64,000 bases of DNA from Candidatus Saccharimonadales bacterium. GTDB lineage: Bacteria; Patescibacteriota; Saccharimonadia; Saccharimonadales; UBA10212. The notes below the pieces were generated by a model that was given only the letters and a program-made list of their open reading frames with translations, ran no database searches and was not told the origin of the DNA. The DNA lies in NCBI GenBank assembly GCA_035758565.1, contig DASTXL010000001.1, positions 203,242 through 267,241 of the forward strand, written 5' to 3'. This document shows, one piece after another, positions 1,034 through 50,180 of this stretch (position 1 is the first letter of the stretch; each line of letters opens with the position of its first letter). A program made the translations under genes and the position numbers.

Positions 1034-1130
1034 AGCAAAAGTATTATAAAAGTGAGTTGATTCGGCAAGTAGCGCTAAGTGGTCTGGGGTGGCGGCCGTT
1101 GCCAGCTACCACCCCAGACTAAAAATCGTA

Positions 1131-3478: not shown

Positions 3479-3479
3479 T

Positions 3480-4316
3480 ATGGCTATCAAGGCTTACAAT
3501 CCAACTACTCCAGGTCGCCGTGGTATGAGCACGCAGGATTTTGATGCTATCACTACTAAAAAGCCTGTTAAGAGCTTGCTGCGCATCAAAAAATCCACTG
3601 CTGGTCGCAACAACCAAGGCCGCATCACTACTCGCCACAAGGGCGGCGGGGTTAAGAACTACTATCGTTTAGTTAACTTCAAACTACCTGTCGGTACGGA
3701 GGCTACTGTTGAGCACATTGAATACGACCCAAATCGTAGTGCCCGAATTGCCCGCGTCAAAGACCAAAATGGCGCTCTGCACTATATATTAGCCGTTCGT
3801 GGCATGCGCCCAGGTCAGAAGTTTACTGTTGCCGAAGAAACCAGCATTGAGTCTGGCAATCGTTTGCCGCTCAAGAGCATTCCAACCGGTACTGTTATCC
3901 ACGCTATCGAACTGCAACCGGGCCGTGGTGCTCAGCTGGTCCGCACCGCCGGCGCTGGTGCCCAGCTAGTTGCTAAAGAAGAAGATTACGCTCAGGTTCG
4001 CCTGCCAAGCGGTGAGGTTCGCATGATTAATGTTGAGTGCATGGCTACCATAGGTGTAATTGGTAATGAGCAGCATCAAAATATCCAAGTTGGTAAAGCC
4101 GGCCGCAACCGCTTAAAGGGTAAACGCCCAACTGTTCGCGGTGTAGTAATGAACGCCGCCGACCACCCTCACGGTGGTGGTGACGGTGGTCGTCACCGTA
4201 TGGCCCGCCCGCCCGTAACTCCGTGGGGTCAGAAGACTTTGGGCTATAAGACTCGCCGCCGAAAAGCAAGTAGCAAGTTTATTGTAAGAACACGTCATCA
4301 AGGAAAGAGGAGATAG
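3480..4316 (+). CDS. rplB: 50S ribosomal protein uL2
   Basis: Starts [15 protein letters not shown] at 3480. HPHGGGDG motif present. Confidence 0.95.
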
Positions 4317-7701: not shown

Positions 7702-8366
7702 TGGCTACGTCTCCTGATGTAAGGAAAAAGAGCAGCCCGAGCGGCGATTCACTCGACGCCCGGCGCGATGAGAAAAAACCATCGGTTTTGTCTCATAAGG
7801 CCGAAGGCCGCAGTTACGAATCTCGCTTGAAAGTGGCCTACAACACTAAATTCGCTCGTGAACTCAAAGACGAGCTTAAGCTAGATAACATCAACCAGGT
7901 TCCAAAGTTAGAGAAGATTACAATTAACGTTGGCCTGGGTCGTGCCAAAGACGATAAACGCTTGCTGGAAGTTGCTGCCAATACTATCCGCAAAATTACT
8001 GGTCAGCAACCAATCGAAACTGTGGCCAAACAGTCAATCGCAACCTTTAAGCTGCGCGAAGGTAACAAAATCGGTATGAAGGTTACCTTACGCGGCGACC
8101 GTATGTACGATTTTGCCGATCGCTTGATCAACATTGTTCTCCCACGTCTGCGCGACTTTCACGGCACTAGCAACCGGGCTTTTGACCGCCAAGGCAACTA
8201 CAGTATTGGCCTAACCGACCAGTCGGTCTTCCCCGAACTTAGTTACGAAGATACAGCTACCGCTCACGGGCTTCAGGTAGTGTTTACTATCCGGACCCAA
8301 GAGCCAGATCACGCTAAAGCACTGCTGAAGAAATTCGGCATGCCATTTGAGAAGGAGAATTCCTAA
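7701..8366 (+). CDS. rplE: 50S ribosomal protein uL5 with an N-terminal extension encoded by repeat copy 4
   Basis: The conserved uL5 core starts near RLKVAYNTKF...QVPKLEKITINVGLG. The only ATG is at 7701, overlapping the rplX stop. In-frame TTG 7827 and GTG 7833 lack a well-placed SD. Confidence 0.85.
   Translation: MATSPDVRKKSSPSGDSLDARRDEKKPSVLSHKAEGRSYESRLKVAYNTKFARELKDELKLDNINQVPKLEKITINVGLGRAKDDKRLLEVAANTIRKITGQQPIETVAKQSIATFKLREGNKIGMKVTLRGDRMYDFADRLINIVLPRLRDFHGTSNRAFDRQGNYSIGLTDQSVFPELSYEDTATAHGLQVVFTIRTQEPDHAKALLKKFGMPFEKENS
7722..7796 (+). repeat. Structured intergenic repeat, copy 4, inside the 5' end of the rplE ORF
   Basis: AGGAAAAAGAGCAGC box; imperfect hairpin CCGAGCGGCGA/TCGACGCCCGG; CGCGAT linker; hairpin ATGAGAaAAAACC-atc-GGTTTTgTCTCAT. 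Confidence 0.7.
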
Positions 8367-8382
8367 AATGTTGAATTTAGTA

Positions 8383-36921: not shown

Positions 36922-38838
36922 ATGCAGAACCCATCTGGCACATTTATAGTCATCGAGGGTGCCGACGGCTCCGGCAAATCCACTCAGTTCAATATCCTAA
37001 AAGCCCGTCTAGAGGCGATAGGGCACGAGGTAGATGTTTTTAAATTCCCGCAGCACCACGAACCATCGGGCTATTTCGTGCATAAGTACCTGAACGGCGG
37101 ATACGGCCCGATTGATAAAATAAGCCCCTACACAGCCTCTTTGTTTTATGCGCTAGACAGATTCGAAGGAGCGCCGGCCATACGTCAATCAATGCAAAGC
37201 GGACATATAGCGTTAAGCGACCGCTATGTGGGCGCCAACATGGCTCACCAGGGGTCCAAATTTACAAATCCGGCAGAACAAAGAGGTTTCTTTGTGTGGG
37301 AAGACGGCTTGGAGTTCGAACTCTTAAACATACCTCGACCAACTCTGACTATTTTTTTGCACGTTCCAGCCGAAATATCTCAAAGACTGTTGGCTGAACG
37401 CGCCAAAAAAACTGGCGTAGCCTTAGACGAGCACGAAAAAAATGTCGAGCACCTTAGAACAACCGTCTCAACATATGAAAAACTTTGCCAGTTGTTTCCG
37501 AACGATTTTAAGTTGGTAGATTGCACCGAAAATGGCAAGCTGCTGAGCGTACCGCAAATCAACAATAAGATTTGGGATGTTGTTAAGCCTATTCTGCCCG
37601 ATAAGCCAAGCAAACCAGCTCACAGCGTAACGGTAAAACTCAACGAGACTGCTCAGTCTAAATCAGCGCCCAAGACCGATACGTCTGAGGTTCCAAAGAA
37701 GGCGGTCAAAGAAGCGGTAAGCACAAAATTAAGCCTGGCGGCCATATTAGAGGCTCGCCTGGCCGGATTAGACATTCAGCCTGAGCTAGATTGGTCAAAA
37801 GCCGGCTACGAGTACTTTAAACCACAGGATTTGCCTAAGAAAACAGCAGCTAAGTACGAGCAGTTTATGGAAGGTTTTGTGGTGTTTCACCGGGCCATGA
37901 AAGGCAAACTCAAAAAAACCGGTGCTAGCGAGGCTTTGCTCTATGACGCCTTGCCGCTAGCGGCGCAATTCGAAGTTAAGGTCCCTTTGCCAGAGAATGA
38001 ACAAGGCCTGTTAGAACAGTTTTCTGGTAGTCAAAATGTGGAGCTGCGCCAACTTGCAGGCCAGCTAAACGGCAATTCTAAGAGTAAAGCCAGCGTCCGC
38101 GACTCTAATCCGCCAGAATCTATCGATAAAATCCTTGCCCGAATCGCCGGTGAACATTTGCCGCAAGCTTTGGCACAACAACCTGAGACAGTAGAGCTGG
38201 TAGAAGCCCAGCCACGCAATGAATTTAAGGTTTTGGCCGATGTTTTATACCCGTATAGTAACTTGCCCAAACTAGACCTAGAGGCCGAGATAGACCAGTG
38301 GGGCTACCAGCAAAAAACAAAGGCCTTAGAAACCGCGCTAAAAAACTCGCCGTCAGAGGTAATGCCCAAACTTCAGTATCGGTTTGACCTAACGCTTGAC
38401 TACCGGCTCTTAAGTCACGTGGTTGGCCTGGTTAAAGATATTAAGCTACAGCCGGCCACGCCACGCTATGGCTACGACGTTCCTCACGCGGTTGACGAAG
38501 CCGGCATAACAGAAGAGTATTTAGAGTGTTTTGACAAAAGCCTGGAGCTATTTAGCACCTTGCAAGCCGCTAGCCGTGACGACTTGGCTGTTTATGCCAC
38601 CTTAACCGGGCACGAGAACCGCTGCCACGTTACTTGCAGCTTGGCGGACCTAAAGACCATTAAAGATAAAAGTCTGTCTAGCGAACTTAACCAACTGATT
38701 GATCAATTGCTAGAAAAGATAAGCGAACACCACCCAATAGCTGCCGCCAGCCTGGGTGAACAATTGTCGGAGGAAGCGCCAAAGTCAGCACGCAAAAAAC
38801 GCCCTCGCCGCCGGGGCGGCAAATCCAAGAAGTCCTAA
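36922..38838 (+). CDS. tmk: Thymidylate kinase fused to a degenerate ThyX-like C-terminal domain
   Basis: The N-terminus has FIVIEGADGSGKSTQ and DRY (Tmk). The C-terminal ~200 aa (PRYGYDVPHAVDEAGITEEYLECF...YATLTGHENRC) parallel thyX residues AYGYEVPELVREAGLEQDFHKCF...YATLFGHRMRY but lack RHR. The tail is basic. Confidence 0.65.
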   Translation: MQNPSGTFIVIEGADGSGKSTQFNILKARLEAIGHEVDVFKFPQHHEPSGYFVHKYLNGGYGPIDKISPYTASLFYALDRFEGAPAIRQSMQSGHIALSDRYVGANMAHQGSKFTNPAEQRGFFVWEDGLEFELLNIPRPTLTIFLHVPAEISQRLLAERAKKTGVALDEHEKNVEHLRTTVSTYEKLCQLFPNDFKLVDCTENGKLLSVPQINNKIWDVVKPILPDKPSKPAHSVTVKLNETAQSKSAPKTDTSEVPKKAVKEAVSTKLSLAAILEARLAGLDIQPELDWSKAGYEYFKPQDLPKKTAAKYEQFMEGFVVFHRAMKGKLKKTGASEALLYDALPLAAQFEVKVPLPENEQGLLEQFSGSQNVELRQLAGQLNGNSKSKASVRDSNPPESIDKILARIAGEHLPQALAQQPETVELVEAQPRNEFKVLADVLYPYSNLPKLDLEAEIDQWGYQQKTKALETALKNSPSEVMPKLQYRFDLTLDYRLLSHVVGLVKDIKLQPATPRYGYDVPHAVDEAGITEEYLECFDKSLELFSTLQAASRDDLAVYATLTGHENRCHVTCSLADLKTIKDKSLSSELNQLIDQLLEKISEHHPIAAASLGEQLSEEAPKSARKKRPRRRGGKSKKS

Positions 38839-38865
38839 AGTGGCCCTTAGTGTTACGATAGAGCT

Positions 38866-39084
38866 ATGCAAAAAGTAGCTACTCGAGTATTTATTGGCGC
38901 GTCGATCGTTTTTGGTATTCTGGGCGTCATCCAGGTTATAACAATGCCAGACAATGACAACGATGCGTCAGATTTTAACAAGATAATCGTGCGGCTTCTA
39001 ATGGCAACCGTCTTTATCGTCTTGCCTTCATTCGCATTAAGCATTGCCGGCAAGTATTTAAACGATAGTTCCAGAGGTCGATAG
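38866..39084 (+). CDS. Small two-TM membrane protein
   Basis: 72-aa ORF with two hydrophobic helices. Confidence 0.4.
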   Translation: MQKVATRVFIGASIVFGILGVIQVITMPDNDNDASDFNKIIVRLLMATVFIVLPSFALSIAGKYLNDSSRGR

Positions 39085-39092
39085 GCAAGAAT

Positions 39093-39674
39093 ATGGGAAA
39101 GCTAATATATTTATTCACCACATCGCTGGACGGCTACGTCGCCGATAAAAATGGCGATTTTAGTTGGTCGAAACCAACCGAGGAGGTCCACTTTTTTGTC
39201 AACGACCAATTGCGTAACGTCGGCACGATTCTAATGGGTCGCAATTTGTACGAGACCTTAAAAGCTTGGGACGACATTCCTACTAAAGGGGTAGGCGGCA
39301 TCATGGACGGCCCAAGTCCAGCCATGAATGATTATTCTAAGATATGGCACGCCGCTAATAAGGTAGTTTATTCTTCTTCGCTTTCTGAGCTCGCGATAGA
39401 CAACGCGAAGATTGAGCGGTCATTTGATCCTGAAGCAGTCAAAAAGCAAGTGGCCGAATCGGCTCATGATTTTGATATCGGCGGTCCGCATCTGGCCGCC
39501 CAGGCCATCAAGGCTGATATTATCGACGAATACCACCAAATTATCGCTCCGCTAATCCTTGGCGAAGGTAATTTCTGGCTGCCCGGCGGGAACCGCAACA
39601 AGCTGGAGCTGGTAGATATGCGCAAGTTTGAAAACGGCTTCGTGCACCTGCATTATAGAAAGGCTGAAGAATGA
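39093..39674 (+). CDS. RibD C-terminal domain / dihydrofolate reductase-family protein
   Basis: TSLDGYVADKNGDFSW and ILMGRNLYE motifs are typical of RibD_C proteins. Confidence 0.6.
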   Translation: MGKLIYLFTTSLDGYVADKNGDFSWSKPTEEVHFFVNDQLRNVGTILMGRNLYETLKAWDDIPTKGVGGIMDGPSPAMNDYSKIWHAANKVVYSSSLSELAIDNAKIERSFDPEAVKKQVAESAHDFDIGGPHLAAQAIKADIIDEYHQIIAPLILGEGNFWLPGGNRNKLELVDMRKFENGFVHLHYRKAEE

Positions 39675-40231
39675 AGAAATTAATCATGTGGAATTTGGTC
39701 ACGCTCGATGGGTTTTTTGAGGGCGAGAAGCCGTGGGATTTATCTTTCCACGGCCTGGTTTTCGATAAAGAGCTAGAGGATTTTACGATCAAGCAGCTAG
39801 ATTCAGCCGACGCAGTTATTTATGGCGAGAATACATACAAAGGCATGGCCGAATACTGGACCGACCCCGACCAAGTAGACGATATTAAGACCGAACCTAT
39901 AAATAAAATTAAAAAATATGTTTGTTCGCCTACACTTAAGACTGCCGATTGGCAAAATACCACGGTTATTAAAGACGCCGTGAGCGAGATACCCAAATTG
40001 AAGCAGGAAGGCGACGGCAATCTGTTCGTTTTTGGCAGCGCCATCTTGAGCGAATCGCTTACGCGCGCGAACCTGTTCGATGAATACCGCTTGTGCGTAG
40101 TGCCGGTGTTCTTGGGCAAGGGCAGGCGGCTGTTCAACGACGGCCTGCCGTATCAAAAATTAAAACTACTAAAATCTCAACCCCTACAATCCGGCGCCAT
40201 CATCCTTACATACGCTCCAAGCTCAAGTTAG
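39671..40231 (+). CDS. RibD C-terminal domain / dihydrofolate reductase-family protein (paralog)
   Basis: VTLDGFFEG, VIYGENTY and LFVFGSAILS motifs. Overlaps the upstream paralog by 4 nt. Confidence 0.55.
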   Translation: MKKLIMWNLVTLDGFFEGEKPWDLSFHGLVFDKELEDFTIKQLDSADAVIYGENTYKGMAEYWTDPDQVDDIKTEPINKIKKYVCSPTLKTADWQNTTVIKDAVSEIPKLKQEGDGNLFVFGSAILSESLTRANLFDEYRLCVVPVFLGKGRRLFNDGLPYQKLKLLKSQPLQSGAIILTYAPSSS

Positions 40232-40262
40232 CGGGAGACCCAAAAACCCAGTTTGATATAGT
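40231..40262 (+). promoter_or_regulatory. Island cassette repeat R1 (GC box - A tract - extended -10)
   Basis: GCGGGAGACCCAAAAACCCAGTTTGATATAGT. Six nt separate the -10 box from the ATG at 40269. Confidence 0.6.
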
Positions 40263-40268
40263 GAGCCT

Positions 40269-40838
40269 ATGCGAACTCGAATAATTCTTCATGGCGGCAA
40301 CTCCGATAGAAGCACCGAAAAGAACGCCAAGTTCTTTAAAGAAATTGTCGATGGCGTGGGAACTAATACGGTAAAAGTCTTATGTGTCTATTTTGCCCGT
40401 CCGGAACACCGCTGGGATGATTCGTACGAAGAAGATAAATATATTTTCCAAAGAATAGATACCGACAAAGATGTAGAAACCGAATTAGCTACTTATGATT
40501 CATTCGTAGACCAAATAGCCGCTGCGGATATTGTGTTTATAAATGGCGGCCATAGAGGGCACTTAAAAGAAACTCTGCTTTCGATCGGTGTGGAGCGCTT
40601 TAGACAGATGGTTGAAGGCAAAACTCTAGTGGGCATAAGCGCCGGAGCGAACATTCTTTCAAAATATTATTATTCGTCGGTAGCTCAAGACATCCGAGAG
40701 GGAACTAACTTCTTGAACATAAAGCTGTTTACTCACTTCTCAGAAGATGAACCTGAACAGCTCAATGATTTAAAGTCGTATGCCGAAGATCTGCCTGTAG
40801 TCACGATTCCCGAAGAAGAGTATTTAGTTATCGAGTAG
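40269..40838 (+). CDS. Peptidase S51 (dipeptidase E-like) family protein
   Basis: ILHGGN, FINGGH and GISAGAN motifs. Confidence 0.5.
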   Translation: MRTRIILHGGNSDRSTEKNAKFFKEIVDGVGTNTVKVLCVYFARPEHRWDDSYEEDKYIFQRIDTDKDVETELATYDSFVDQIAAADIVFINGGHRGHLKETLLSIGVERFRQMVEGKTLVGISAGANILSKYYYSSVAQDIREGTNFLNIKLFTHFSEDEPEQLNDLKSYAEDLPVVTIPEEEYLVIE

Positions 40839-40855
40839 GCACCCGCAGAAAATCA

Positions 40856-40893
40856 GGCGGAGCGGACCCAAAAAATCCCCAGTTTGTTATAAT
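40856..40893 (+). promoter_or_regulatory. Island cassette repeat R2
   Basis: GGCGGAGCGGACCCAAAAAATCCCCAGTTTGTTATAAT. Six nt separate the -10 box from the ATG at 40900. Confidence 0.65.
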
Positions 40894-40899
40894 TCATTC

Positions 40900-41145
40900 A
40901 TGGCAGAGGATGAATTTACTAAACTTTTCAAATACATCACCGAACGTTTCGACAAGGTAGATGCAGAGCTTGAGAAAAAAGCCGATGCAGCTCTGGTAGA
41001 AAAAGTTCTGGCTTTGATTGATAAGATTGCCAAACAACAGGAAATCAACGACGAAGAACGCCTGGTCATGGGCCACCAGTTGGACAGAATGGACCGCTGG
41101 GTCCATGAGCTGGCCGACAAGATTGGTTATAAACTTTCAGTTTAA
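40900..41145 (+). CDS. Small coiled-coil hypothetical protein
   Basis: 81-aa ORF with a leaderless-type start. Confidence 0.45.
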   Translation: MAEDEFTKLFKYITERFDKVDAELEKKADAALVEKVLALIDKIAKQQEINDEERLVMGHQLDRMDRWVHELADKIGYKLSV

Positions 41146-41158
41146 GACTGTAGTGATT

Positions 41159-41287
41159 ATGAAGCTCAAAGGAAAAGTAGCAAAAATTGGCAAAGCGACG
41201 GTTGTTGTATTCGATAAAGCCATGTTCGAAAAGTCAGGTTTGAAGGTTGGTGATTTGGTAAGCCTAGCTGGTATCAAAAAGCTTTAA
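41159..41287 (+). CDS. Very small AbrB/MazE-like (SpoVT-AbrB fold) candidate
   Basis: 42 aa: MKLKGKVAKIGKATVVVFDKAMFEKSGLKVGDLVSLAGIKKL. The call is a weak pattern match only. Confidence 0.25.
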   Translation: MKLKGKVAKIGKATVVVFDKAMFEKSGLKVGDLVSLAGIKKL

Positions 41288-41296
41288 CGGCTAACT

Positions 41297-41557
41297 GCTC
41301 CATTTGTTCTGGCAAAACGGAATCTAAAAATCTCGAACCAAAGCTACGTTCTTTACCAAAGAACCAAATGTTTTTCATCCATTTCTTGGTCGCGAAGAAA
41401 CGGAAGCCAAAGAACGACAGGCAACTCACTCCCGCAGGACTGTTTCGTACGTTCATGAAAAGGGAAGACTGCGGAACTCGTGCTTTGGGCACTCAAACAG
41501 TCCTCGCTTCAGACTTTTCATAAACTTCTTTAGCAGCTCTGGTTCGCTCGAGCCTGG
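41297..41557 (+). repeat. Repeat family copy A (modules 1+2)
   Basis: Aligns with 43389-43604 (same strand) and with the reverse complement of 47505-47732. Ends in GGTTCGCTCGAGCCTGG. Confidence 0.8.
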
Positions 41558-41570
41558 GGTTTTTGAGCCG

Positions 41571-41609
41571 GGCGGGGCGGACCCAAAAAATCCCAAGATT
41601 GCTTATGCT
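41571..41609 (+). promoter_or_regulatory. Island cassette repeat R3 (divergent -10 part)
   Basis: GGCGGGGCGGACCCAAAAAATCCCAAGATTGCTTATGCT. The downstream gene has its own GGAGGAAGC SD. Confidence 0.5.
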
Positions 41610-41656
41610 TGCAATGTTGAATCGTTAAGAATATATTTCTGTTAATCGGAGGAAGC

Positions 41657-42016
41657 ATGGCAGAGAGAACACATCCAAATGAAAAGTACGTAGAAAATCT
41701 ATTTAACGACGCTATTAATTGGCTAGGTGTAGTTGGAGAATATGACCATAATATTCCAAAGGAAGATAATCCCTACAACCGGTCGGTAGATAAGGCCCTA
41801 AACTTCTTAGCTAGCCAAATCGCCGAAAGTTCAATAGATATAGCCATGCTACTATCTACCTTAGAACGACAAGCACAGACAGTAGTTGCCGAATCTGATG
41901 ACCTCTATGGGGACTTGGACAGAGTTATTAGGACCAATCAAATGTATGTGCTAGCCAGGACGATGAACGCATATTCTTCGCCAGAACGTATTGTTCACAT
42001 CCCGCTGGAAGTGTAA
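41657..42016 (+). CDS. Hypothetical protein
   Basis: 119-aa ORF with a CGGAGGAAGC SD. Confidence 0.45.
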   Translation: MAERTHPNEKYVENLFNDAINWLGVVGEYDHNIPKEDNPYNRSVDKALNFLASQIAESSIDIAMLLSTLERQAQTVVAESDDLYGDLDRVIRTNQMYVLARTMNAYSSPERIVHIPLEV

Positions 42017-42027
42017 ACCCTCAGCCG

Positions 42028-42065
42028 CTGAGGCAAACCCAAAAAATCCCAAGTTTTGATATAAT
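42028..42065 (+). promoter_or_regulatory. Island cassette repeat R4
   Basis: GCTGAGGCAAACCCAAAAAATCCCAAGTTTTGATATAAT. Six nt separate the -10 box from the ATG at 42072. Confidence 0.6.
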
Positions 42066-42071
42066 ATTCTT

Positions 42072-42167
42072 ATGAATAAAGTAGCAACAAAGCCGAACGT
42101 TCAGGTCTGGACAAAGAACTTCATCAAGAAGTACTCTCCGGCTTTAAAAGAGCTGTCCAAAAAATAA
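42072..42167 (+). CDS. 31-aa candidate antitoxin partner of Doc
   Basis: MNKVATKPNVQVWTKNFIKKYSPALKELSKK. It ends 6 nt before the doc start, in the usual upstream position of an antitoxin. Confidence 0.3.
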   Translation: MNKVATKPNVQVWTKNFIKKYSPALKELSKK

Positions 42168-42173
42168 AAATCT

Positions 42174-42560
42174 ATGAACCAAATATCGGTCGACGATGTT
42201 GTTTACATCCACGACCATATTATTGCCGCTTCTGGCGGTCTTACGGGACTAAGGGATAAAGGACAGCTCAAAGCTTGCCTAGCCAGGCCTTTTCAAAGCG
42301 CTTTTGGTGAAGAAACATATCCCGATCTGTTCGAGAAAGCAGCCGCCTTACTGGACTGCATTGCCAATGATCATCCGTTTGCAGATGGCAATAAACGAAC
42401 AGCCATGGCGTCGGCAGTTATCTTTCTGGTGTCGTACGGTATATCTACCGACTTCACGAACCAAGAATACGAAGATTTCATGCTCCACGTCGTTAATGAT
42501 AAGCCGAGCATCCAAGAGATTGCCAACTGGCTTCGCCAACACGGCGACATAATTATTTAA
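42174..42560 (+). CDS. doc: Fic/Doc-family toxin (death-on-curing type)
   Basis: HPFADGNKRTA matches the Doc variant of the Fic motif, and the 128-aa size fits. Confidence 0.8.
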   Translation: MNQISVDDVVYIHDHIIAASGGLTGLRDKGQLKACLARPFQSAFGEETYPDLFEKAAALLDCIANDHPFADGNKRTAMASAVIFLVSYGISTDFTNQEYEDFMLHVVNDKPSIQEIANWLRQHGDIII

Positions 42561-42566
42561 AACACA

Positions 42567-42603
42567 GGCGGGGCGGACCCAAAAAATCCCAGTTTGATAT
42601 AGT
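42567..42603 (+). promoter_or_regulatory. Island cassette repeat R5
   Basis: GGCGGGGCGGACCCAAAAAATCCCAGTTTGATATAGT. Seven nt separate it from the ATG at 42610. Confidence 0.65.
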
Positions 42604-42609
42604 TTTTAT

Positions 42610-43374
42610 ATGTACAAGTCATTTACAGCAGATGATTATCGCAAACACTTAAAGCTGCCGGCCGATTATGTTGTTGATGGTTTTTTAATTTACGGCACGT
42701 TTAGAAAGTTCCCATACGAACAGTTGGAGGATTCACTCAAAAAACAAAGGATAGAATATCAAACCGCAAAAATTGGCGACGAATATTTTGACCCAGTGCT
42801 TACGTTTAGGGTAGGCAATAATAATTATTGGTTCACTATTGCTTACGGCGGAACAATGCTAAGCGAATATCTACATTTAGCCTGCACGTTTGGCAGCAAG
42901 AAGAACCTTTTGATAGGTAGTTGCGGCGGGCTCAAAAAAGGCGCGTCGAGTTTGGACATCATAGTTCCGGACTGGAGCTATGGCGACGAAAGTTCCGCGA
43001 GGTCCTATCAGAACGAAAAAGATGGTAAGCAGTATTCGGACACTTCGATTTCTGATAGGTTGGCAGATAAACTAGCCGATAAATACAAGGTGCACCGTGG
43101 TCCAACCGTCACTCATCAAGCAATGCTTGGTGAAACCTGGGAAGACATTGAGCGCTGGGCACAACAGGGCTATATTGGCGTAGAGATGGAAGCATCTACT
43201 GTTTTTGCGGTATCGAATCATTTTAAAGTACCCTCGGCTGCCATTCTTCACATTGGCGATAACCTTATAGAAGAAGAAACGGTTATGGACATAAATTACG
43301 AAACCAACCGCGATTTACACAGGCAAGTTTCTCAAGACATCTTCGATGCAGCCGTTGAAGAATTACTTAAATAG
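42610..43374 (+). CDS. Nucleoside phosphorylase-superfamily (PNP_UDP_1-like) protein
   Basis: GSCGGL and GVEMEAS motifs. Confidence 0.5.
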   Translation: MYKSFTADDYRKHLKLPADYVVDGFLIYGTFRKFPYEQLEDSLKKQRIEYQTAKIGDEYFDPVLTFRVGNNNYWFTIAYGGTMLSEYLHLACTFGSKKNLLIGSCGGLKKGASSLDIIVPDWSYGDESSARSYQNEKDGKQYSDTSISDRLADKLADKYKVHRGPTVTHQAMLGETWEDIERWAQQGYIGVEMEASTVFAVSNHFKVPSAAILHIGDNLIEEETVMDINYETNRDLHRQVSQDIFDAAVEELLK

Positions 43375-43388
43375 CTTTTAGACGCAAA

Positions 43389-43604
43389 CTCAAAAATCCA
43401 TGTTCTTTAGCAAAGAACCAAATGTTTTCAACCATTTGATTCGGCAAACGGTTGACCAAAGCCGACAGGCATTCGCTCCGGCAGGGCTGGTTCGTACGTT
43501 TTTAAAAAGGGAAGACTGCGAAACTCGCGGATTGGCGCTTCAAACAGTCCTCGCTTCAGGCTTTTCATAAACTTCTCACCAATCTCTGGTTCGCTCGAGC
43601 CTGG
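43389..43604 (+). repeat. Repeat family copy B
   Basis: Shares GTTCTTTagcAAAGAACCAAATG...AAAAGGGAAGACTGCGaAACTCG...CAAACAGTCCTCGCTTCAG...GGTTCGCTCGAGCCTGG with copy A. Confidence 0.8.
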
Positions 43605-43641
43605 ATTTGATTAACGTAAAATTAAAGTCCCTATATTTGCT

Positions 43642-44550
43642 ATGATGAATCTCATGAAAACGGACTATTCTCTTGAATGGTTTCAGGAGAGAGCATTTAA
43701 ATCACTTAAGAAAATCAAAGAAGGCCAGTGGGACTATTCAGATCCATCATTGATCTACGTGCCTGACGAGGAAGAAAAATACGAAACAGTTCAGCAGAGC
43801 GGAAGTCGATACCACGAACTTATCACGGAACCAGAAAAGAAGTATCTGGAACAAATTGCACCAATAGTAGCAAATGCGCTGCCAAATGATTTTGAATATA
43901 TCGATCTCGGTCCTGGCAATGCACATAAAGAACAATATATTTTTGACGCGCTCAAAGCCCTGGGAAAAAAATTTAAGTACATCCCTGTAGACATAGATAA
44001 AAAATATCTTGATCTTGCTGCTCGGCATGCAGAGCGACAAGGTATCGAGGTTTCAGATGCTCAGCTACTCTTCGAAGAATTACCGTACAGATTGCCAGCA
44101 AGTCATACCCCGCGCTTTGTTTCCATCGGAATGACGTTTACGAACTATGCGCCTGACACGATCTTGCCGCTGTTGAAGAAGATTGCCGGTCAATCCGGAT
44201 ACGTCTTGACTAATTCACAGATCAGGGAACGGCTAGATATGGCCGCGGTCACGGATGTTTATCAGGATGAGGTTTATGCGTTACTGGAGACAAAGATAAG
44301 GTTGCTAGGACTTCGTCCCTCAGATCTTGAAAAGCAATGGTGCGACGACGGCATCAGAGCCTGGTTTAAGATAAAGAATGTCAGCCAAGATCTCAGCAAG
44401 CTCGGCGTCAGAGCTGGTGATGAGTTCTTAGCCTATTATTTCTTTAGGCCGACTATAAAATCGCTTTCAGAAAGCTTCAGCCGACACTTCGACAGCTTCA
44501 AACTGCTCGATATTAACGCCGCCTTTGTGGCCGGCCTACTCTTTACCTAA
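43642..44550 (+). CDS. SAM-dependent methyltransferase (EgtD/Methyltransf_33-like)
   Basis: YIDLGPGNAHKEQYIFDAL resembles the SAM-binding motif I of EgtD-type enzymes. This is the only supporting motif. Confidence 0.35.
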   Translation: MMNLMKTDYSLEWFQERAFKSLKKIKEGQWDYSDPSLIYVPDEEEKYETVQQSGSRYHELITEPEKKYLEQIAPIVANALPNDFEYIDLGPGNAHKEQYIFDALKALGKKFKYIPVDIDKKYLDLAARHAERQGIEVSDAQLLFEELPYRLPASHTPRFVSIGMTFTNYAPDTILPLLKKIAGQSGYVLTNSQIRERLDMAAVTDVYQDEVYALLETKIRLLGLRPSDLEKQWCDDGIRAWFKIKNVSQDLSKLGVRAGDEFLAYYFFRPTIKSLSESFSRHFDSFKLLDINAAFVAGLLFT

Positions 44551-44554
44551 AACC

Positions 44555-44596
44555 GGGCGGGGCAAACCCAAAAAATCCTCTTATTGTTAATATAGT
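44555..44596 (+). promoter_or_regulatory. Island cassette repeat R6
   Basis: GGGCGGGGCAAACCCAAAAAATCCTCTTATTGTTAATATAGT, followed by a second TGTTATAAT. Confidence 0.5.
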
Positions 44597-44671
44597 CATA
44601 TTATGTTATAATTTACTTATCTTTGGAAGCAATTCCTCAGATTGTAATGTCATCCTATTCTAGGAGGCATC

Positions 44672-45133
44672 ATGGACGATCAGACGGTGAGCCCCGAGGC
44701 TCGCACCGCTGCCAAGTGGTGGGCAGACCAGCTGCGTGGGCCGGCGAGGATGGACAACGGATCGCTTGAGTACTCCATGGAGACCGGCGACCCGAACCAC
44801 TTCGACCAGGCCATCACGACGATGGGTCTCGCAGGGATACTCAACGAGCGCGAACGCTCCGGCCTCAGCGACGAGCAGATCTCCGTGTTCGAAGAAGCGC
44901 TCGCAAGGCGCGTCCAGGAGCGGCTGCAGCAGTCCGGTGAGTTCGGCGTCACGATCGACGTCGACTACCACCCGGACTACCTGCTCGTCGACAGCGCGGA
45001 CGAGGCCGGCATTCGTGTCGGCATGACGCTCTTCCCCTGGAAGACGACCATGTGGATCGAGACCGGAAGCGTCAGGGTGAGCTGCGGCTACCGCGGCCCG
45101 ACCGAGGACCTGTCGATCGCCACCGCGTCATAG
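44672..45133 (+). CDS. High-GC hypothetical protein (horizontally acquired, actinobacterial-type codon usage)
   Basis: 153-aa ORF with a TAGGAGG SD. Codon third positions are almost all G/C (GAC, GAG, CTC, ACG, ATC), unlike neighbouring genes. A GC-rich terminator hairpin follows (GGGCGGGAGC...GCTCCCGCCC). Confidence 0.65.
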   Translation: MDDQTVSPEARTAAKWWADQLRGPARMDNGSLEYSMETGDPNHFDQAITTMGLAGILNERERSGLSDEQISVFEEALARRVQERLQQSGEFGVTIDVDYHPDYLLVDSADEAGIRVGMTLFPWKTTMWIETGSVRVSCGYRGPTEDLSIATAS

Positions 45134-45254
45134 GAGAAACAGCCCTCATTGCCGTTTCCACGGGCGGGAGCCGTAGAGCTCCCGCCCCAGCGCCATGAAC
45201 GCTTCTGCATTTGCAGTCAAGCGCCTTGGCGCTTTTTTCGATTCTAAAATCATC

Positions 45255-45286
45255 GGGGCGGACCCAAAAAATCCTGGTCTGTATTC
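45255..45286 (+). promoter_or_regulatory. Island cassette repeat R7 (divergent 3' part)
   Basis: GGGGCGGACCCAAAAAATCCTGGTCTGTATTC. A GATATAAT box lies at 45301-45308. Confidence 0.5.
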
Positions 45287-45331
45287 TTCGCTAAAACGAA
45301 GATATAATTGCGGTAAGGATGGTCTAAGAGT

Positions 45332-46507
45332 ATGAGCCGAGAAAATAGAGTTTTTAAATTAACCTTTCTTGTCGTCGCCAAGGACTGGGACGAAGTAATT
45401 ACTGTCTTCAAAAAAGAATTAGGAATCACAAAAGTTAAAGAGGACATTGGTGACTACAAGATGGCGGGTCACTATATTGTTGGATTAGATTTATCTGATA
45501 GAGACCTAAGCGACGGTTTCTATGGAAAGATTCATGCAAGTTCAACAATAACTCTGTTAAGCGACAAGGCATCTGATGAGCGAGCACAAAAGATCCTGGA
45601 CCTCGCAAGACCAATTGAGCTAAAGCTTAGAGAGTTAATTATCTATGCTCACGAGCTAGTTGACGCGTACTTCGACATTATTCAACCTAAAAGTCCTGTG
45701 GCGAAGAGGTTTATGGGCTCTAAGCAATTAGTGGGCAAGGAAGTTTTAGATTCGGCCGTTTCATTTCTCGACCTAGGGGAAATTATAAAAGTTCTGGGAA
45801 GTGATGGGAATGAGGTCGACACAACCAGACCCACAGACGACATAGTTAAACTGCTAGAGGCAACTTCGAACTTTGAACAATTTAAGGAAAAATTGATTAA
45901 GAAGTTTAAGCGCCTAACGGTCTGGGATGTTATTGCGAAGACGGTTTTGCAACAACCGATTTCTTGGTTAAGTATCAAAGATGACTTAAACGAGCTAAAA
46001 AACATCCGTAATGTAGCCGCTCATTTTAGAATCGCAACGCCGGATAATCTTAAGAGAGCGACCGAATTGTCAGGAAGTTTACTACCCCAGCTATCGAGAA
46101 AGCCGGACCCGGACCGAAAAGCAATTGAGGAGATGGCTCAAACTTTTTCTGTGTGGGCTAAAGAATACGAGTTGTTCAAGGAAGTAAATAAAGCCGCACT
46201 TGATGCTATAAAGGTTAATAATAGTTTTCTTACGCAGGCCACTAAAGACATTTCAAACTCTTTCAGATCTGCAATCCCAGACATAAATTCTTCGATATCA
46301 AACTTTAATACAGTTTCAGGTTCGATATATCCAGATTCTTTATTGCGAAGTATGGCGTTTCCTGATATTTCGTCGATAAATCCAGGAGCGGGTTTGCATA
46401 AGGCTAGTCCTGATATCGGGAAATTCTTGGGCAGTGAATACGATAGCGACCAGGGTGACAGCGAAGATGAAGATAGCACTTCTATGGCGCCTGTTAAGAA
46501 AAAATAA
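45332..46507 (+). CDS. HEPN-domain protein (Rx4H; Swt1/Abi-like)
   Basis: LNELKNIRNVAAHFR contains the R-x4-H HEPN signature in the usual helical context. The C-terminus is low-complexity and acidic. Confidence 0.5.
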   Translation: MSRENRVFKLTFLVVAKDWDEVITVFKKELGITKVKEDIGDYKMAGHYIVGLDLSDRDLSDGFYGKIHASSTITLLSDKASDERAQKILDLARPIELKLRELIIYAHELVDAYFDIIQPKSPVAKRFMGSKQLVGKEVLDSAVSFLDLGEIIKVLGSDGNEVDTTRPTDDIVKLLEATSNFEQFKEKLIKKFKRLTVWDVIAKTVLQQPISWLSIKDDLNELKNIRNVAAHFRIATPDNLKRATELSGSLLPQLSRKPDPDRKAIEEMAQTFSVWAKEYELFKEVNKAALDAIKVNNSFLTQATKDISNSFRSAIPDINSSISNFNTVSGSIYPDSLLRSMAFPDISSINPGAGLHKASPDIGKFLGSEYDSDQGDSEDEDSTSMAPVKKK

Positions 46508-46514
46508 AGACATA

Positions 46515-47477
46515 ATGAAACTGCCAAACCGCGACAAAATCATCAACGAGCTTACTCGCCGCTATGAAGAAGTGCTTAGGAGATCTGAGAGCAGATTGAA
46601 GAATGACGAGGACGCACGTCAATTTATATCGCTGATCGCCCACTATATTAACTACATTAAGCAAGACGAACTCACAGAGGAAGCCATAACAAAATTATTT
46701 AAAAATAAAGAGGCACTCGCGAGTGATCAAGTTCTTATTGATGAGGCAGATAAAATCATAGTTCAGTTAAGAAAAGATCGTAATAAGGTTGTTAAATTTG
46801 CAGCCAAACAAGGTATTGATACTGGACCGTATCAATTTAATACTTCCAGCACGGCTCAACAGATTACGCTAGACAAGGAGGTCTCTTTTAACCTTAGCTT
46901 CTTGGACAATTTCCTCAAACTTCCCAGCGACCATCAAAGAGTCAGTGATTTACCAAATCAAATAGGTCATTTCCGCTCAATTATTTTTGCCACCACGCAA
47001 TTAGCGGGCGAGACAAGAGCACTCACAAAGTTAAAGTCTGACTATAGCGATATATCTAACGAGTTTGCAAAGAAGCTAAAGATGCAGGGCGTGTATTTAA
47101 ATTATCTACGGATTGAAGATTATCAAGCCCTAGAGGTTGTTTGGCGAGAGGTTTATCAAGAGAGCGATCATGATGAGCAATTTATATTTCACTTTATGTA
47201 CGGAGATTTGTTTGAAAAAAACCGAACTTTTTCTCCCGGTCAACAAAATGATGCAAATGAATTTGTATCAAAATATATGAGCCACCTACAACGCGTGCAT
47301 AACTACCTAATCGATGGACTTGAGAATGCGCCCTCTTCTGAAAAATTTGTTAAGTGGCTTGTAGAACATTTTGGCCCAACTTTAGCTTCAGTAATAATCA
47401 TCCTAGTAATATATGTAATTCTCCGTCATCTAGGTCTGAAGATAGACATAAACTCACTAAAGAATTGGGTCGGGTAA
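46515..47477 (+). CDS. Hypothetical protein with a C-terminal TM anchor
   Basis: The ATG at 46515 is 8 nt after the HEPN gene stop. The C-terminal helix is LASVIIILVIYVILRHLGL. Confidence 0.45.
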   Translation: MKLPNRDKIINELTRRYEEVLRRSESRLKNDEDARQFISLIAHYINYIKQDELTEEAITKLFKNKEALASDQVLIDEADKIIVQLRKDRNKVVKFAAKQGIDTGPYQFNTSSTAQQITLDKEVSFNLSFLDNFLKLPSDHQRVSDLPNQIGHFRSIIFATTQLAGETRALTKLKSDYSDISNEFAKKLKMQGVYLNYLRIEDYQALEVVWREVYQESDHDEQFIFHFMYGDLFEKNRTFSPGQQNDANEFVSKYMSHLQRVHNYLIDGLENAPSSEKFVKWLVEHFGPTLASVIIILVIYVILRHLGLKIDINSLKNWVG

Positions 47478-47504
47478 GTCGAACGTCGACTTGTTCCTGA
47501 TATT

Positions 47505-47732
47505 CCAGGCTCGAGAAAACAGAGAGAGTGAGGAGCGAGTTCAAAAGTCTGAACCGAGGACTGTTTGAGCGCCAAACGGCGAGTTCCGCAGGTTCACTTT
47601 TGGCGATTGTGCGAGCGACCATCTAGTTTTCGAATGCCTGCCGTTTCTTGGCTTCCGTTCTTTCGCGGCCAAAGAATGGAAGAAAACATTTGGTACTTTT
47701 CAAAAGTACATTCTTGCCAGAACAAAATGGAA
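47505..47732 (-). repeat. Repeat family copy C (inverted orientation)
   Basis: Its reverse complement aligns with copy A. On the plus strand the core 47506-47640 is closed by CAGGCTCGAGAAAAC...GTTTTCGAATGCCTG. Confidence 0.8.
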
Positions 47733-47761
47733 CAAAAAATAGTTAAGCGTACAATAAAGTT

Positions 47762-48025
47762 ATGGCCTACGAACCGGACGAGGAAGACCTTAAATGGATG
47801 AAAACTCGCAAAAGCGGGCATACGTACGCAGAGCGCGCTAAATGGCGTGAAGAATACGCCAAAACCCACCCCGCTAAAGAAATTGAGAGCCATGGCTGGC
47901 GAGACTTCTTTATAGGTTTAGCTATTATGATAATCATTATTTTGATAGCTTTTGCTCTGGGCGGTAACGACCCTACTACTGACGGAAATTGTAATCAAGC
48001 TAACTTTTCGGGTTTGGGCTGTTAA
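47762..48025 (+). CDS. Small membrane protein
   Basis: 87-aa ORF with one TM helix (FFIGLAIMIIIILIAFALGG). Confidence 0.4.
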   Translation: MAYEPDEEDLKWMKTRKSGHTYAERAKWREEYAKTHPAKEIESHGWRDFFIGLAIMIIIILIAFALGGNDPTTDGNCNQANFSGLGC

Positions 48026-48265
48026 TCTGTTACCGTGTCTTAATGGGAGATATGCCCGCTTAGACTGTTGCCTAACAGAGTTAATTTTGCTAATATATCC
48101 AGGAACTTGAGCCAAAGACAGCGACGGGGAAACCTTAATAAAGTCGCCTAGGAACAAGAAAGTCTTATAGATTTTTACGTTAGTCTTTTGGCCATAATAG
48201 GCCATTTTTTATAGCTCAAGACACCTTAACAAATTGGTCGATATTGTTAAACAAGGAGAAAACTC
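48026..48265 (+). promoter_or_regulatory. Long untranslated leader upstream of rplJ (candidate L10 autoregulatory leader)
   Basis: 240 nt without a credible ORF, ending in an AAGGAGAAAA SD. L10-leader regulation is known in many bacteria, but no structure was verified here. Confidence 0.25.
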
Positions 48266-48790
48266 ATGGCTTTATCCAGAGAGAAAAAAGAAGAAGCCGT
48301 TAGTGAAGTTACGCAACTCCTGAAAGATTCCAAATTGACGGTCGTAGCCAAATACCAGGGCACGAGCGTTAAGTCTATGCAGGAGCTTCGCCGCGCTTCG
48401 CGCGATAACGGCACCCGAGTCCTCGTCGTCAAGAACCGCTTATTCAAAAAAGCGGCCGCTGGTGACGAACGATTTAAAGACACTGATCTAAGCGAACTGA
48501 ACGGACAGCTGATGTACGCCTTCAACAATGAAGACGAAGTCGCACCCGCCCAGAGCCTGGCCAATTTTGCCAAAAATGAGCCGCAGATCGAATTTGTCGC
48601 CGCCTTGACCCCAGAAGGTAAACTTCTACCTGCCGAGGAGGTCAAAGTCTTGGCCAGCTTGCCAAGCAAGAACGAGCTTATCGCTCAGACTGTCGCAATG
48701 CTTCTATCGCCCGTTAACGACGTTACAAACGCGCTTTCCGGCAACCTGTACGCTCTATTAGACGGCGTGGAAGCAAAGGCTACAGCGTAA
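48266..48790 (+). CDS. rplJ: 50S ribosomal protein uL10
   Basis: MALSREKKEEAV start and LRRASRDNGTRVLVVKN motif, upstream of rplL. Confidence 0.9.
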   Translation: MALSREKKEEAVSEVTQLLKDSKLTVVAKYQGTSVKSMQELRRASRDNGTRVLVVKNRLFKKAAAGDERFKDTDLSELNGQLMYAFNNEDEVAPAQSLANFAKNEPQIEFVAALTPEGKLLPAEEVKVLASLPSKNELIAQTVAMLLSPVNDVTNALSGNLYALLDGVEAKATA

Positions 48791-48816
48791 ATATTAATTA
48801 GGAAGGAATTGAAATC

Positions 48817-49200
48817 ATGGCAGATTTAAAGAATTTAGCTAAAGAACTCACAGGCTTAACTGTCCTGGAAGTCAACGAACTTAAGACCATCCTTAAGGAT
48901 GAATACGGCATCGAGCCGGCCGCCGCAGCTGTAGCTGTTGCCGGCCCAGCCGCTGGTGGCGCTGAAGGCGGAGCCGCCACGGAAGAGAAGAGCGAATACG
49001 ACGTCATGCTAAAAGACGCCGGTGCTCAGAAGGTTGCAGTCATCAAGGCTGTTAAAGATATCACCGGCCTAGGCCTGGGCGAGGCTAAGGCTATCGTAGA
49101 CGGCGCTCCTAAGGCTGTTGTCGAGAAAGTTAGCAAAGAAGACGCTGAAAACGCCAAGAAGGCTTTAGAAGAAGCTGGCGCTACAGTCGAACTCGCCTAA
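48817..49200 (+). CDS. rplL: 50S ribosomal protein bL12
   Basis: Ala-rich hinge, and the C-terminal domain [27 protein letters not shown]...[10 protein letters not shown]. Confidence 0.95.
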
Positions 49201-49416
49201 CAATAACGCAACGCCTAGCCCTGCCAACTGGCTTTAGCCAGCCGCACCGGCTAGGCTTCTGGCGTATTACGGCGTCAGAAGCTTACGGTACTCCTTAGCA
49301 GTATTTCGATACAGCTAGAGTCCGTTCCTCAGCTTCTTTCTTGTACTACGCTCAGATGCGTGAATTGTTTGATTCAAAGAGAAAAGGAAAAGTTTTAGAG
49401 AGACTTTTGCAAAGAA

Positions 49417-49441
49417 CTGCCCCGAAAAAGGGCAGTTTTTT
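49417..49441 (+). terminator. Rho-independent terminator downstream of rplL
   Basis: CTGCCC-cgaaaaa-GGGCAG followed by TTTTTT. Confidence 0.6.
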
Positions 49442-49462
49442 GTTGGGTTAAGTTAATAGTAA

Positions 49463-49552
49463 AGGGAAAGGTAGTAGCTCCGGTTCGGCTTTGGCCGAAT
49501 CCGGATTTACTCCGGAAGGAGCGTTGAAGGAAAACCGCAGGTTGTCCTTCAA
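49463..49552 (+). repeat. Structured repeat, copy 8 (three-way variant; orphan, outside any operon junction)
   Basis: AGGGAAAGGTAGTAGC box. CTCC...GGAG closes GGTTCGGC/GCCGAATC and CGGA/TCCG. Followed by hairpin TTGAAGGAaAACC-gca-GGTTgTCCTTCAA. It has no start codon, and stop codons occur in the frames used by the other copies. Confidence 0.75.
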
Positions 49553-49667
49553 ATTGGTTTATCCACAGAAAAACGCTATATTTTTGACACCATATATAAT
49601 AGTGTGTTAGGTTTGGGGTGAATATAGGGGATTAAATAAAAAACCTATAGGGAGATTTGGAAAACAA

Positions 49668-50180
49668 ATGACAGACATACCTGAAAAGCAGATAAAACGG
49701 CTTCGCAGCTTAATTGCAGAGGCTGAGACGGCTTTGGCCGCCACTAAAGAATTGTTAGTGAGCTTGGTTGGCGACGACCCAGTTTTAACCGAGAAACTTG
49801 TAGATAAGCAGCTGGGCAAAGTTATAGAAGGCGTCTTCGACGGCCAGAACATGGTCGGCAGCGACGGCAAAACTTACCCAGTACCGGCTAACTACGCCTC
49901 TAAATCTAAGTTGGTGCAGGGCGATATTCTTAAGCTGACAATCGCCGATGACGGCTCATTCCTTTATAAGCAAATCGGGCCAATTCCACGCAAGCAGGTA
50001 GTTGGCGTATTGCAGCAAAAAGACGGCCACTACTTTGTAGAAGTTGATGGCAAACAATACCGCGTACTGTTGGCCAGCGTAACCTACTTTAAGGCTAAGC
50101 CTGGCGACCAAGTCAGCGTGAATGTTCCAGAAGATTCTACCGTCGACGCCGAGTGGGCCGCCCTAGAAGCCGCCCTGTAA
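49668..50180 (+). CDS. Hypothetical protein
   Basis: 170-aa ORF following a GGGAGA sequence. No family recognised. Confidence 0.5.
   Translation: MTDIPEKQIKRLRSLIAEAETALAATKELLVSLVGDDPVLTEKLVDKQLGKVIEGVFDGQNMVGSDGKTYPVPANYASKSKLVQGDILKLTIADDGSFLYKQIGPIPRKQVVGVLQQKDGHYFVEVDGKQYRVLLASVTYFKAKPGDQVSVNVPEDSTVDAEWAALEAAL

Follow-up and report, generated by a model that had tools for sequence, protein, structure and literature searches.

A high-GC, phage-type gene with a predicted BTG/Tob-like fold in a variable island of a Candidatus Saccharimonadales genome

How did a gene of strongly deviating base composition come to lie in the genome of a Candidatus Saccharimonadales bacterium, and what might its product do? 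The question is raised by a 153-aa open reading frame (ORF) at positions 44672-45133 (+) of a 64-kb stretch of contig DASTXL010000001.1 (assembly GCA_035758565.1), which is the whole DNA analyzed here and is referred to as the window. The ORF has a GC content of 0.65, with values of 0.62, 0.47, and 0.88 at the first, second, and third codon positions (GC1, GC2, and GC3), respectively, while the GC content of the whole window is 0.477. The identical protein has been deposited as hypothetical protein VFT49_01470 of a Candidatus Saccharimonadales metagenome-assembled genome (MAG), where its gene lies on a contig of 483 kb. As a whole, the observations are probably best explained by an acquired high-GC gene of phage type that encodes a protein with a BTG/Tob-like fold and lies in a variable island.

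Composition, edges, and acquisition of the high-GC gene

The window has 77 further ORFs with a length of 120 aa or more, all of which have a GC3 between 0.34 and 0.64; GC3 is 0.50 in 20 core genes and 0.45 in nine genes of the island. In the high-GC ORF, GAC outnumbers GAT by 12 to 1 and GAG outnumbers GAA by 10 to 3, ATC and GGC occur five and seven times, respectively, and ACC and ACG six times each, while TTT, AAA, CAA, TAT, and AAT do not occur at all. The ratios of CTC to CTG (6:4) and of GTC to GTG (6:3) rest on counts too small to discriminate a donor. The bias extends beyond the third position, as GC1, GC2, and the amino-acid composition are shifted as well, and the FYMINK residues (F, Y, M, I, N, and K) make up 0.17 of the protein, the lowest fraction among the relatives compared. 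Compared with the other ORFs of the window, the gene is an extreme outlier in GC3, and its codon usage is far from that of the core and island genes.

When the 64 kb are divided into 400-nt bins, 44801-45200 (0.652) is the sole bin with a GC content above 0.57. At a resolution of 60 nt, the GC content is 0.23-0.27 at 44560-44660, jumps to 0.65-0.70 near position 44660, stays high until about 45220, and is at or below 0.40 beyond 45260. The high-GC block thus spans approximately 44660-45240 (about 585 bp) with sharp edges. It contains the coding sequence, probably also the Shine-Dalgarno sequence, a GC-rich hairpin in the 3′ untranslated region (UTR), and an intrinsic terminator (Table 1), and the RNA fold of positions 45131-45250 in the 3′ UTR has a free energy of -52.8 kcal/mol (z = -5.3). 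The word ATTCTA occurs at both edges and is the only one of at least 6 nt common to the two junction windows; the pair may represent junction microhomology or a chance match. The original prediction had described a gene of almost exclusively G/C-ending codons in contrast to its neighbors, accompanied by overlapping antisense ORFs, equipped with its own TAGGAGG sequence and GC-rich terminator, and placed behind an island repeat and a native-looking promoter. The codon counts and the GC3 values agree with this description, two antisense ORFs are present, and the remaining elements were located as claimed.

Sharp compositional edges in a metagenome-assembled genome, together with short repeats at both sides of the block, could also arise if foreign reads had been joined into the contig during assembly or binning. 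A chimeric join, however, leaves one junction, and the block has two, with the same island on both sides and with a native promoter before it and the repeat of the next cassette behind it. The words shared by the flanks (14 nt of the island repeat and the 6-nt ATTCTA) are also far below the k-mer length of assemblers. Furthermore, window positions 37642-49870 (12,229 bp), including both junctions, recur with 100% identity in a 13.3-kb contig of an independent assembly, that of run SRR25158471 in Logan. Because the 585-bp block is joined twice to one continuing native context and a second assembler reproduces it, a chimeric assembly is very unlikely, and an artefact of assembly or binning in general is given very little credence.

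Homologues from elsewhere allow the bias of the gene to be separated from any trait of its family. In 15 loci, the GC content of the homologue follows that of its own contig over a range of 0.26-0.68, with one partial exception. As the homologues take on the GC content of their contigs, the bias of the high-GC gene reflects foreign origin and not a family trait. The partial exception concerns a member found at positions 3631-4035 of locus L007 and 3287-3691 of locus L008, which has a GC content of 0.39 on contigs of 0.264 and 0.254, respectively. The element whose end it occupies also encodes a phage integrase, a Big_2 protein, and an Mrr-type nuclease, and the member represents an apparent second transfer of the family across GC classes.

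The genomic position was compared with 80 related Saccharimonadales loci, which were recruited via L10 proteins of 57-89% identity. In at least six relatives (L027, L032, L085, L098, L099, and L023), a distance of about 300 nt separates the end of the tmk homologue from rplJ, and the 13 island proteins, including the high-GC one, had zero tblastn matches in the 80 loci. Since tmk and rplJ are adjacent in relatives and the island proteins have no matches there, the 9.3 kb between the two genes are an insertion specific to this lineage.

The gene was almost certainly acquired horizontally. Its position as a GC3 outlier, the lack of a GC bias in its family, and its absence from the junction of relatives bear out the recent acquisition from a high-GC source that had been proposed for it, and its composition points to a long stay in a high-GC genome followed by a recent arrival without visible compositional adjustment. 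A native gene, with GC3 raised by selection for mRNA structure, for an overlapping antisense gene, or for translational tuning, would fit the long antisense ORFs and the strongly structured 3′ UTR. Antisense ORFs are, however, an expected by-product of high GC3, homologues elsewhere lack such a bias, the shift includes GC1, GC2, and the amino-acid composition with its low FYMINK fraction, and the locus in relatives lacks the gene. Selection on a native gene is therefore considered extremely improbable.

Protein family and source of the gene

A profile search, which was among the checks proposed by the original prediction, assigned the protein to phrog_8937 of PHROGs v4 (E 2.9e-21, 77 bits), with residues 5-150 aligned to positions 6-135 of the 137 in the profile. 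Four relatives match the same profile, which PHROGs v4 annotates as function unknown. An exhaustive search of 1.84 billion cluster representatives with a hidden Markov model (HMM) recovered 3,095 clusters, defined at 50% identity, at E <= 1e-3 and 166 at E <= 1e-30. In an alignment of 100 sequences, eight residues (W16, W17, L77, Y99, K124, M127, G139, and Y140) never vary. Because the high-GC protein retains all of them, the gene is judged intact, and the ORF reads as a real and conserved gene. The protein resembles the other members in size and in the motifs AAxWWA, DNG, VDYxPD, FPWKTxMW, and VSxGYG. Unlike them, it is encoded in a chromosomal island of a genome of the candidate phyla radiation (CPR), is at most 47% identical to any of them, has an extreme GC3, and carries a 14-residue insertion at about residues 31-44. 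Pfam assigns it to no family above threshold, NCBIfam gives no match, and a sequence-profile search of the PDB with it returned nothing relevant.

Members of the family occur in a variety of mobile settings. Loci L001 and L002 are phage-like contigs on which many small ORFs accompany a divergent helix-turn-helix (HTH) repressor, AAA_24, HNH, and RNase H. A member also lies in the early/replication region of the cultured Faecalibacterium phages Toutatis and Lelie, and further members were found on seven viral contigs of IMG/VR, on Clostridium megaplasmids, and, in L007, in an integrative element beside the integrase and the Mrr nuclease. The family is thus carried mainly by phages, in early or DNA-metabolism regions, and by integrative and mobile elements. 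In an all-vs-all BLAST of the ORFs within 5 kb of the family member in 15 loci, no neighbor was conserved in three or more of them; given this and the varied mobile settings, the family behaves as a free-moving accessory gene, and its surroundings offer no hint of a functional partner.

The family domain is also found in longer proteins whose N-terminal regions lack an annotation, as a C-terminal fusion in P0018, P0097, and P0122 (about 455 aa) and in P0011, P0089, P0091, and P0110 (about 250-270 aa), and followed by DUF7736 in P0111 (262 aa). Among the N- and C-terminal fusion partners, only the DUF7736 match and a sub-threshold RRF match were obtained, which give no functional clue. The homologue of Streptosporangium carneum (L009, positions 8001-8369 of NZ_BSEV01000028.1) lacks the DNG and FPWKT motifs, and it is surrounded by ordinary genes of the chromosome (for a potassium transporter, an RNA methyltransferase, and a WD40 protein), with no obvious prophage. 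Its box B-like segment, LPPETIMWINPGQVRV, looks nearer to the box B of eukaryotic BTG proteins than the phage consensus is.

The composition of the gene argues for a high-GC donor and the distribution of the family for a vector of the phage or mobile-element type. The somewhat favored donor is accordingly a high-GC bacterium's phage or mobile element. Several results weigh against this assignment. The closest relative among 5.8 billion proteins, P0002, is 47% identical and lies on a phage-like contig of only 0.48 GC. A blastn search with the 596-bp block had no match in 50,697 phage records. No donor lineage was identified by close homologues, with 47% as the best identity. The next relatives are 40-45% identical and located on contigs of 0.47-0.58 GC, and a second search of the 5.8 billion proteins, with a profile weighted to high-GC members, found nothing above 47% identity. 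In a tblastn search against phages and plasmids, the only matches, of about 31-33% identity, were to the Faecalibacterium phages and the Clostridium megaplasmids.

To our knowledge, the hosts of all cultured Saccharibacteria are Actinobacteria, and an actinobacterial host is plausible as a source on general grounds. The gene would then have come directly from the chromosome, a prophage, or a phage of that host. A preference for CTC over CTG and for GTC over GTG fits many Actinobacteria, as do the GC3 of 0.88 and the use of ACG and GAG; moreover, the family has a member in S. carneum and another, with a GC3 of 0.865, on a viral contig of 68% GC (L016). The S. carneum protein is, however, 29% identical, which places the only actinobacterial homologue among the most distant members, and a pattern scan of GTDB genomes found it alone. 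No nearer relative from Actinobacteria or actinophages was found, a GC content of 65-70% is reached by many phyla, and the remaining relatives with a named organism are a Planctomycetota MAG and a Cyanobacteria MAG. Given that identity peaks at 47%, that the nearest relatives lie on contigs of 0.47-0.58 GC, and that the sole actinobacterial match is 29% identical, the host-to-epibiont transfer suggested by the original prediction is not supported and is considered unlikely.

Under the preferred reading of a phage or mobile-element donor, the block at approximately 44660-45240 would have arrived by horizontal transfer from a genome of about 65-70% GC. It would have consisted of the coding sequence, probably its ribosome-binding site, the GC-rich 3′ hairpin, and the terminator, and would have been inserted behind a promoter of the island type, within a strain-specific island at the tmk-rplJ junction. 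The immediate donor would most likely have been a phage or mobile element of a high-GC bacterium. Transcription would start from the predicted promoter at 44584-44612 and end at about 45240, with translation from the ribosome-binding site of the gene itself.

Predicted fold and putative function

Structure prediction, likewise proposed at the outset, gave a confident model. The AlphaFold2 model, built on the 100-sequence alignment, has a mean predicted local distance difference test score (pLDDT) of 94.4 and a predicted template modelling score (pTM) of 0.88, and its fold is BTG/Tob-like. In a Foldseek search against the PDB, the ten best matches were all BTG/Tob (APRO) domains, namely those of human Tob1, human BTG2, mouse TIS21, and C. 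elegans FOG-3. These ten matches had E values of 6.6e-6 to 1.8e-3, a probability of 1.00, and template modelling (TM) scores normalized to the target of 0.52-0.74, while the eleventh had an E value of 0.5. Against viral models, the sole Foldseek match was one Pithovirus protein. The model shares with BTG/Tob a predicted element order of two long helices, a strand, a helix, and three strands, and the box B-like segment of the protein, FPWKTTMWIETGSVRVSCGY, is aligned to the corresponding BTG segment.

Sequence profiles give graded signals for the same relationship. The Pfam BTG profile (PF07742) matches 19 of 100 relatives at E <= 1, the best of them at 1.4e-5, and matches P0005 at E 2.5e-4 over profile positions 15-115 of 117. 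Some members carry a precomputed PF07742 tag in databases, and the S. carneum protein is named 'Anti-proliferative protein domain-containing' in UniRef. With hhalign, the family was aligned to a 3-sequence BTG template with a probability of 82.6% and to a 17-sequence vertebrate template of BTG2, BTG1, and Tob1 with 87.7% (E 3.4e-6); both values are supportive but lie below the usual level of 95%, and the BTG profile is of low diversity. It is narrow, since the best 120 homologues of BTG2 are vertebrate BTG1 and BTG2 only. The BTG2 query sequence was checked and is 100% identical to PDB 3DJU.

Four observations speak against a relationship with BTG/Tob. The match of PF07742 to the high-GC protein itself (13.7 bits, E 0.049) is under the gathering cut-off of 23, and the hhalign probabilities stay below 90%. 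The box A loop of BTG, HWFPEKPSKGSG, falls into a gap of the hhalign alignment, to which box A contributes no more than its C-terminal strand. In addition, the BTG2 residues Y65, W103, and D105, which are required for CAF1 binding according to mutagenesis (PMC2588512), correspond to F91, W128, and E130, and these columns are not conserved in the family. In BTG2, box A comprises Y50-N71 (HWFPEKPxKGSGYRC) and box B L96-E115 (PMC2588512). Within box B, P122, W128, and E130 of the high-GC protein are aligned to P97, W103, and D105 of BTG2; in the family as a whole, only 47% of sequences have W in column 128, and column 130 varies. Because the contact columns vary, the CAF1-type interface is probably not the conserved functional surface of the family. 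The protein further differs from BTG/Tob in about 40 extra N-terminal residues, which are helical and carry the invariant WW and a DNG motif, and in the conserved W16, W17, D98, Y99, K124, T125, and Y140, which have no counterpart there. Its family is prokaryotic and viral, whereas BTG/Tob is eukaryotic. On the evidence of the model, the protein is BTG/Tob-like in fold and probably homologous, and in a functional sense it is filed outside the BTG/Tob family. A full-text literature search found no description of bacterial or phage homologues of BTG/Tob.

BTG/Tob proteins dock on CAF1, a DEDD-type nuclease, and we know of no CCR4-NOT/CAF1 complex in bacteria. The protein may act as a small binding module, probably without enzymatic activity and derived from the early region of a phage. 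It would bind and modulate a nucleic-acid-processing enzyme of a host or rival in phage-host conflict. Such a role is suggested by its small size, the lack of a recognizable catalytic motif, a family of phage early genes, and the fold of a nuclease-docking domain, and its chances are put at about even. A nuclease as the binding partner, by analogy with the suppression of CAF1 deadenylase activity by BTG2 in vitro (PMC2588512), would be a doubtful guess.

The immunity or host-interaction role raised by the original prediction would be conjectural, and a search with PADLOC defence HMMs gave nothing for the protein at E <= 0.01. Against the binding-module role, D98, Y99, K124, T125, and Y140 could equally mark a ligand-binding or catalytic site. 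This leads to the alternative of a small enzyme or ligand-binding protein on a BTG-like scaffold in place of a protein-binding adaptor. W16, W17, D98, Y99, K124, T125, and Y140 are absolutely conserved without a BTG/Tob counterpart, and the positions of CAF1 contact are variable in the family. However, Pfam, NCBIfam, and the sequence and fold searches of the PDB revealed no similarity to any enzyme family, and the members comprise only about 125-150 aa without a recognizable nucleotide-binding motif. An enzymatic or ligand-binding role is regarded as improbable, and the binding module is retained as the preferred role.

Organization of the island and implications

The coordinates of the high-GC cassette and of its surroundings are collected in Table 1.

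Table 1. Features of the high-GC cassette and of the island in which it lies, in window coordinates
Feature	Position	Strand	Detail
tmk, thymidylate-kinase fusion gene	36922-38838		638 aa; left neighbor of the island
Lineage-specific variable island	38839-48093	+	9.3 kb; between tmk and the L10 leader/rplJ
Island repeat copy r5	44549-44589	+	GGGCGGGGCAAACCCAAAAAATCCT...; upstream of the high-GC cassette
Predicted sigma-70-type promoter	44584-44612	+	TTGTTA-17-TATAAT, extended -10 TGtTATAAT; 10/12 consensus positions
ATTCTA, left copy of 6-nt direct repeat	44657-44662	+	left edge of the high-GC block
Overlapping ORF	44660-44971	-	ORF list
Shine-Dalgarno sequence TAGGAGG	44661-44667	+	read from the sequence; 4 nt before the ATG
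Overlapping ORF	44680-44952	-	ORF list
Overlapping out-of-frame ORF	44736-45026	+	ORF list
GC-rich 10-bp hairpin in the 3′ UTR	45162-45187	+	GGGCGGGAGC-cgtaga-GCTCCCGCCC; within the high-GC block
Intrinsic terminator, hairpin and T-run	45219-45240	+	AAGCGCC-ttg-GCGCTTTTTT; terminator scan and fold
ATTCTA, right copy of 6-nt direct repeat	45241-45246	+	right edge of the high-GC block
Island repeat copy r6	45245-45285	+	heads the next cassette (391-aa ORF, 45332)
L10 leader, then rplJ and rplL	leader 48094-48218; leader + rplJ 48094-48790		RF00557 match

According to Pfam, the cargo of the island includes two RibD_C genes, Peptidase_S51, Fic/Doc, PNP_UDP_1, and a Methyltransf_33-like gene; small ORFs, the high-GC gene, a 391-aa ORF, and a 347-aa ORF complete it, and several of the ORFs are without an assignment. 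The Fic/Doc-family ORF at 42174-42560 has the motif HPFADGNKRTA and matches Pfam Fic at E 4e-19, so the toxin-type cassettes that had been noted near the high-GC gene do have a representative in the same island. The short ORF before it could be a candidate antitoxin, and the island ORF at 41093-41287 is AbrB/SpoVT-like by eye without a Pfam match. In the closest relative (L021, with an L10 protein of 89% identity), the same site upstream of rplJ (404-3092) holds other cargo, namely a 676-aa HATPase_c_3 protein and a 226-aa PD-Lambda-3_A defence protein. Because of this different cargo, the tmk-rplJ site is regarded as a variable hotspot, which in this lineage of Saccharimonadales seems to be one for defence or accessory genes.

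The setting shares several traits with compositionally atypical genes in genomic and defence islands: a GC3 outlier, an empty syntenic site in relatives, a variable region beside a conserved operon, a Fic/Doc neighbor, and a defence gene of a relative at the same site. Unlike those islands, it has no integrase, transposase, or tRNA attachment site, and each cassette is headed by a promoter-bearing repeat of about 40 nt. The search for integrase, transposase, and recombinase domains and for a tRNA attachment site was negative among the island ORFs, the rest of the 64-kb window being unscanned for integrases.

The repeat occurs in six copies between 40849 and 45285, which together with a related site at 40233 give seven intergenic sites. 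All seven share the motif GGGCGGGGCGGACCCAAAAAATCC, each time followed by a -10 element of the type TGnTATAAT. The core motif has six matches, all inside the island, against a chance expectation of 0.24, and its exact 20-mer core, GGGGCGGACCCAAAAAATCC, has no occurrence in metagenome or viral collections. In four cassettes (starts at 40269, 40900, about 42074, and 42610), an ATG lies exactly 6 nt past the -10 element, and this spacing suggests that these four cassettes make leaderless mRNAs.

Before the high-GC gene, the equivalent ATG runs straight into a stop (ATG-TTA-TAA). A second -10 element at this place, TGTTATAAT, gives rise to a leader that is AT-rich, about 50 nt long, and continuous with the TAGGAGG sequence and the high-GC coding sequence. 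As this second element and the AT-rich leader precede TAGGAGG, the foreign block sits behind a promoter of the island type. The predicted promoter, in an AT-rich region with a local GC content of 0.23-0.27, looks island-native, and the upstream repeat and promoter, which are common to other island cassettes, appear native to the island as well.

Single-gene units in one orientation with a recurring short repeat between them also characterize integron cassettes, which are defined by attC sites and the integrase IntI. Here, in contrast, the repeat lies upstream of the gene and is promoter-like, and is not an imperfect palindrome of the attC type downstream of it. With no attC-like structure and no tyrosine recombinase or integrase among the island ORFs, an integron reading of the island was rejected.

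A second repeated element of about 230 nt is present in three copies that are about 80% identical, at 41320-41570 (+), 43374-43625 (+), and, inverted, at 47490-47740. Each copy directly follows the end of a cassette and contains a degenerate ORF of 51-56 aa. The element has no Rfam match at E <= 1, and the fold of the three-copy consensus is without convincing covariation; it could be a miniature inverted-repeat transposable element (MITE), a non-coding RNA, or a decayed gene.

Two short similarities connect the first RibD_C gene with the high-GC gene. The pattern TAGG[C/A]GGCATCATGGACG is shared in 17 of 18 positions between 39292-39309 and 44661-44678, and a 37-nt stretch is 70% identical between 39474-39510 and 44780-44816. 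Their offsets are 63 nt apart, and by our own estimate about 0.06 matches like the 18-mer are expected over all pairs in 12 kb. The similarities are probably due to chance.

The locus represents a clean case of recent gene capture by Saccharimonadales, in which a single gene of unaltered foreign composition stands behind a native promoter near the rplJL operon. It indicates that such reduced genomes still take up foreign DNA, very likely phage DNA. Whether the gene came from the host or from a phage becomes testable once the host is known. New here are the identity of the family (phrog_8937 with its predicted BTG/Tob-like fold) and the recognition of the island as a lineage-specific insertion between tmk and rplJ, while automatic PF07742 tags on a few members were already on record in Pfam and UniRef.

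A tentative extension, given less than even confidence, regards phrog_8937 as the counterpart of BTG/Tob in prokaryotes and viruses, and possibly as its ancestor. It would then be a phage early family of about 3,100 clusters that docks on nucleic-acid enzymes of the host, one copy of which moved from the phage of a high-GC bacterium to an ultra-small epibiont and was kept intact under a native promoter in a hotspot. So far, BTG/Tob has been known from eukaryotes, as a domain that regulates the CAF1 deadenylase. Should the homology be true, the domain would gain a prokaryotic or viral relative, and phage biology would gain a candidate class of small host-targeting proteins.

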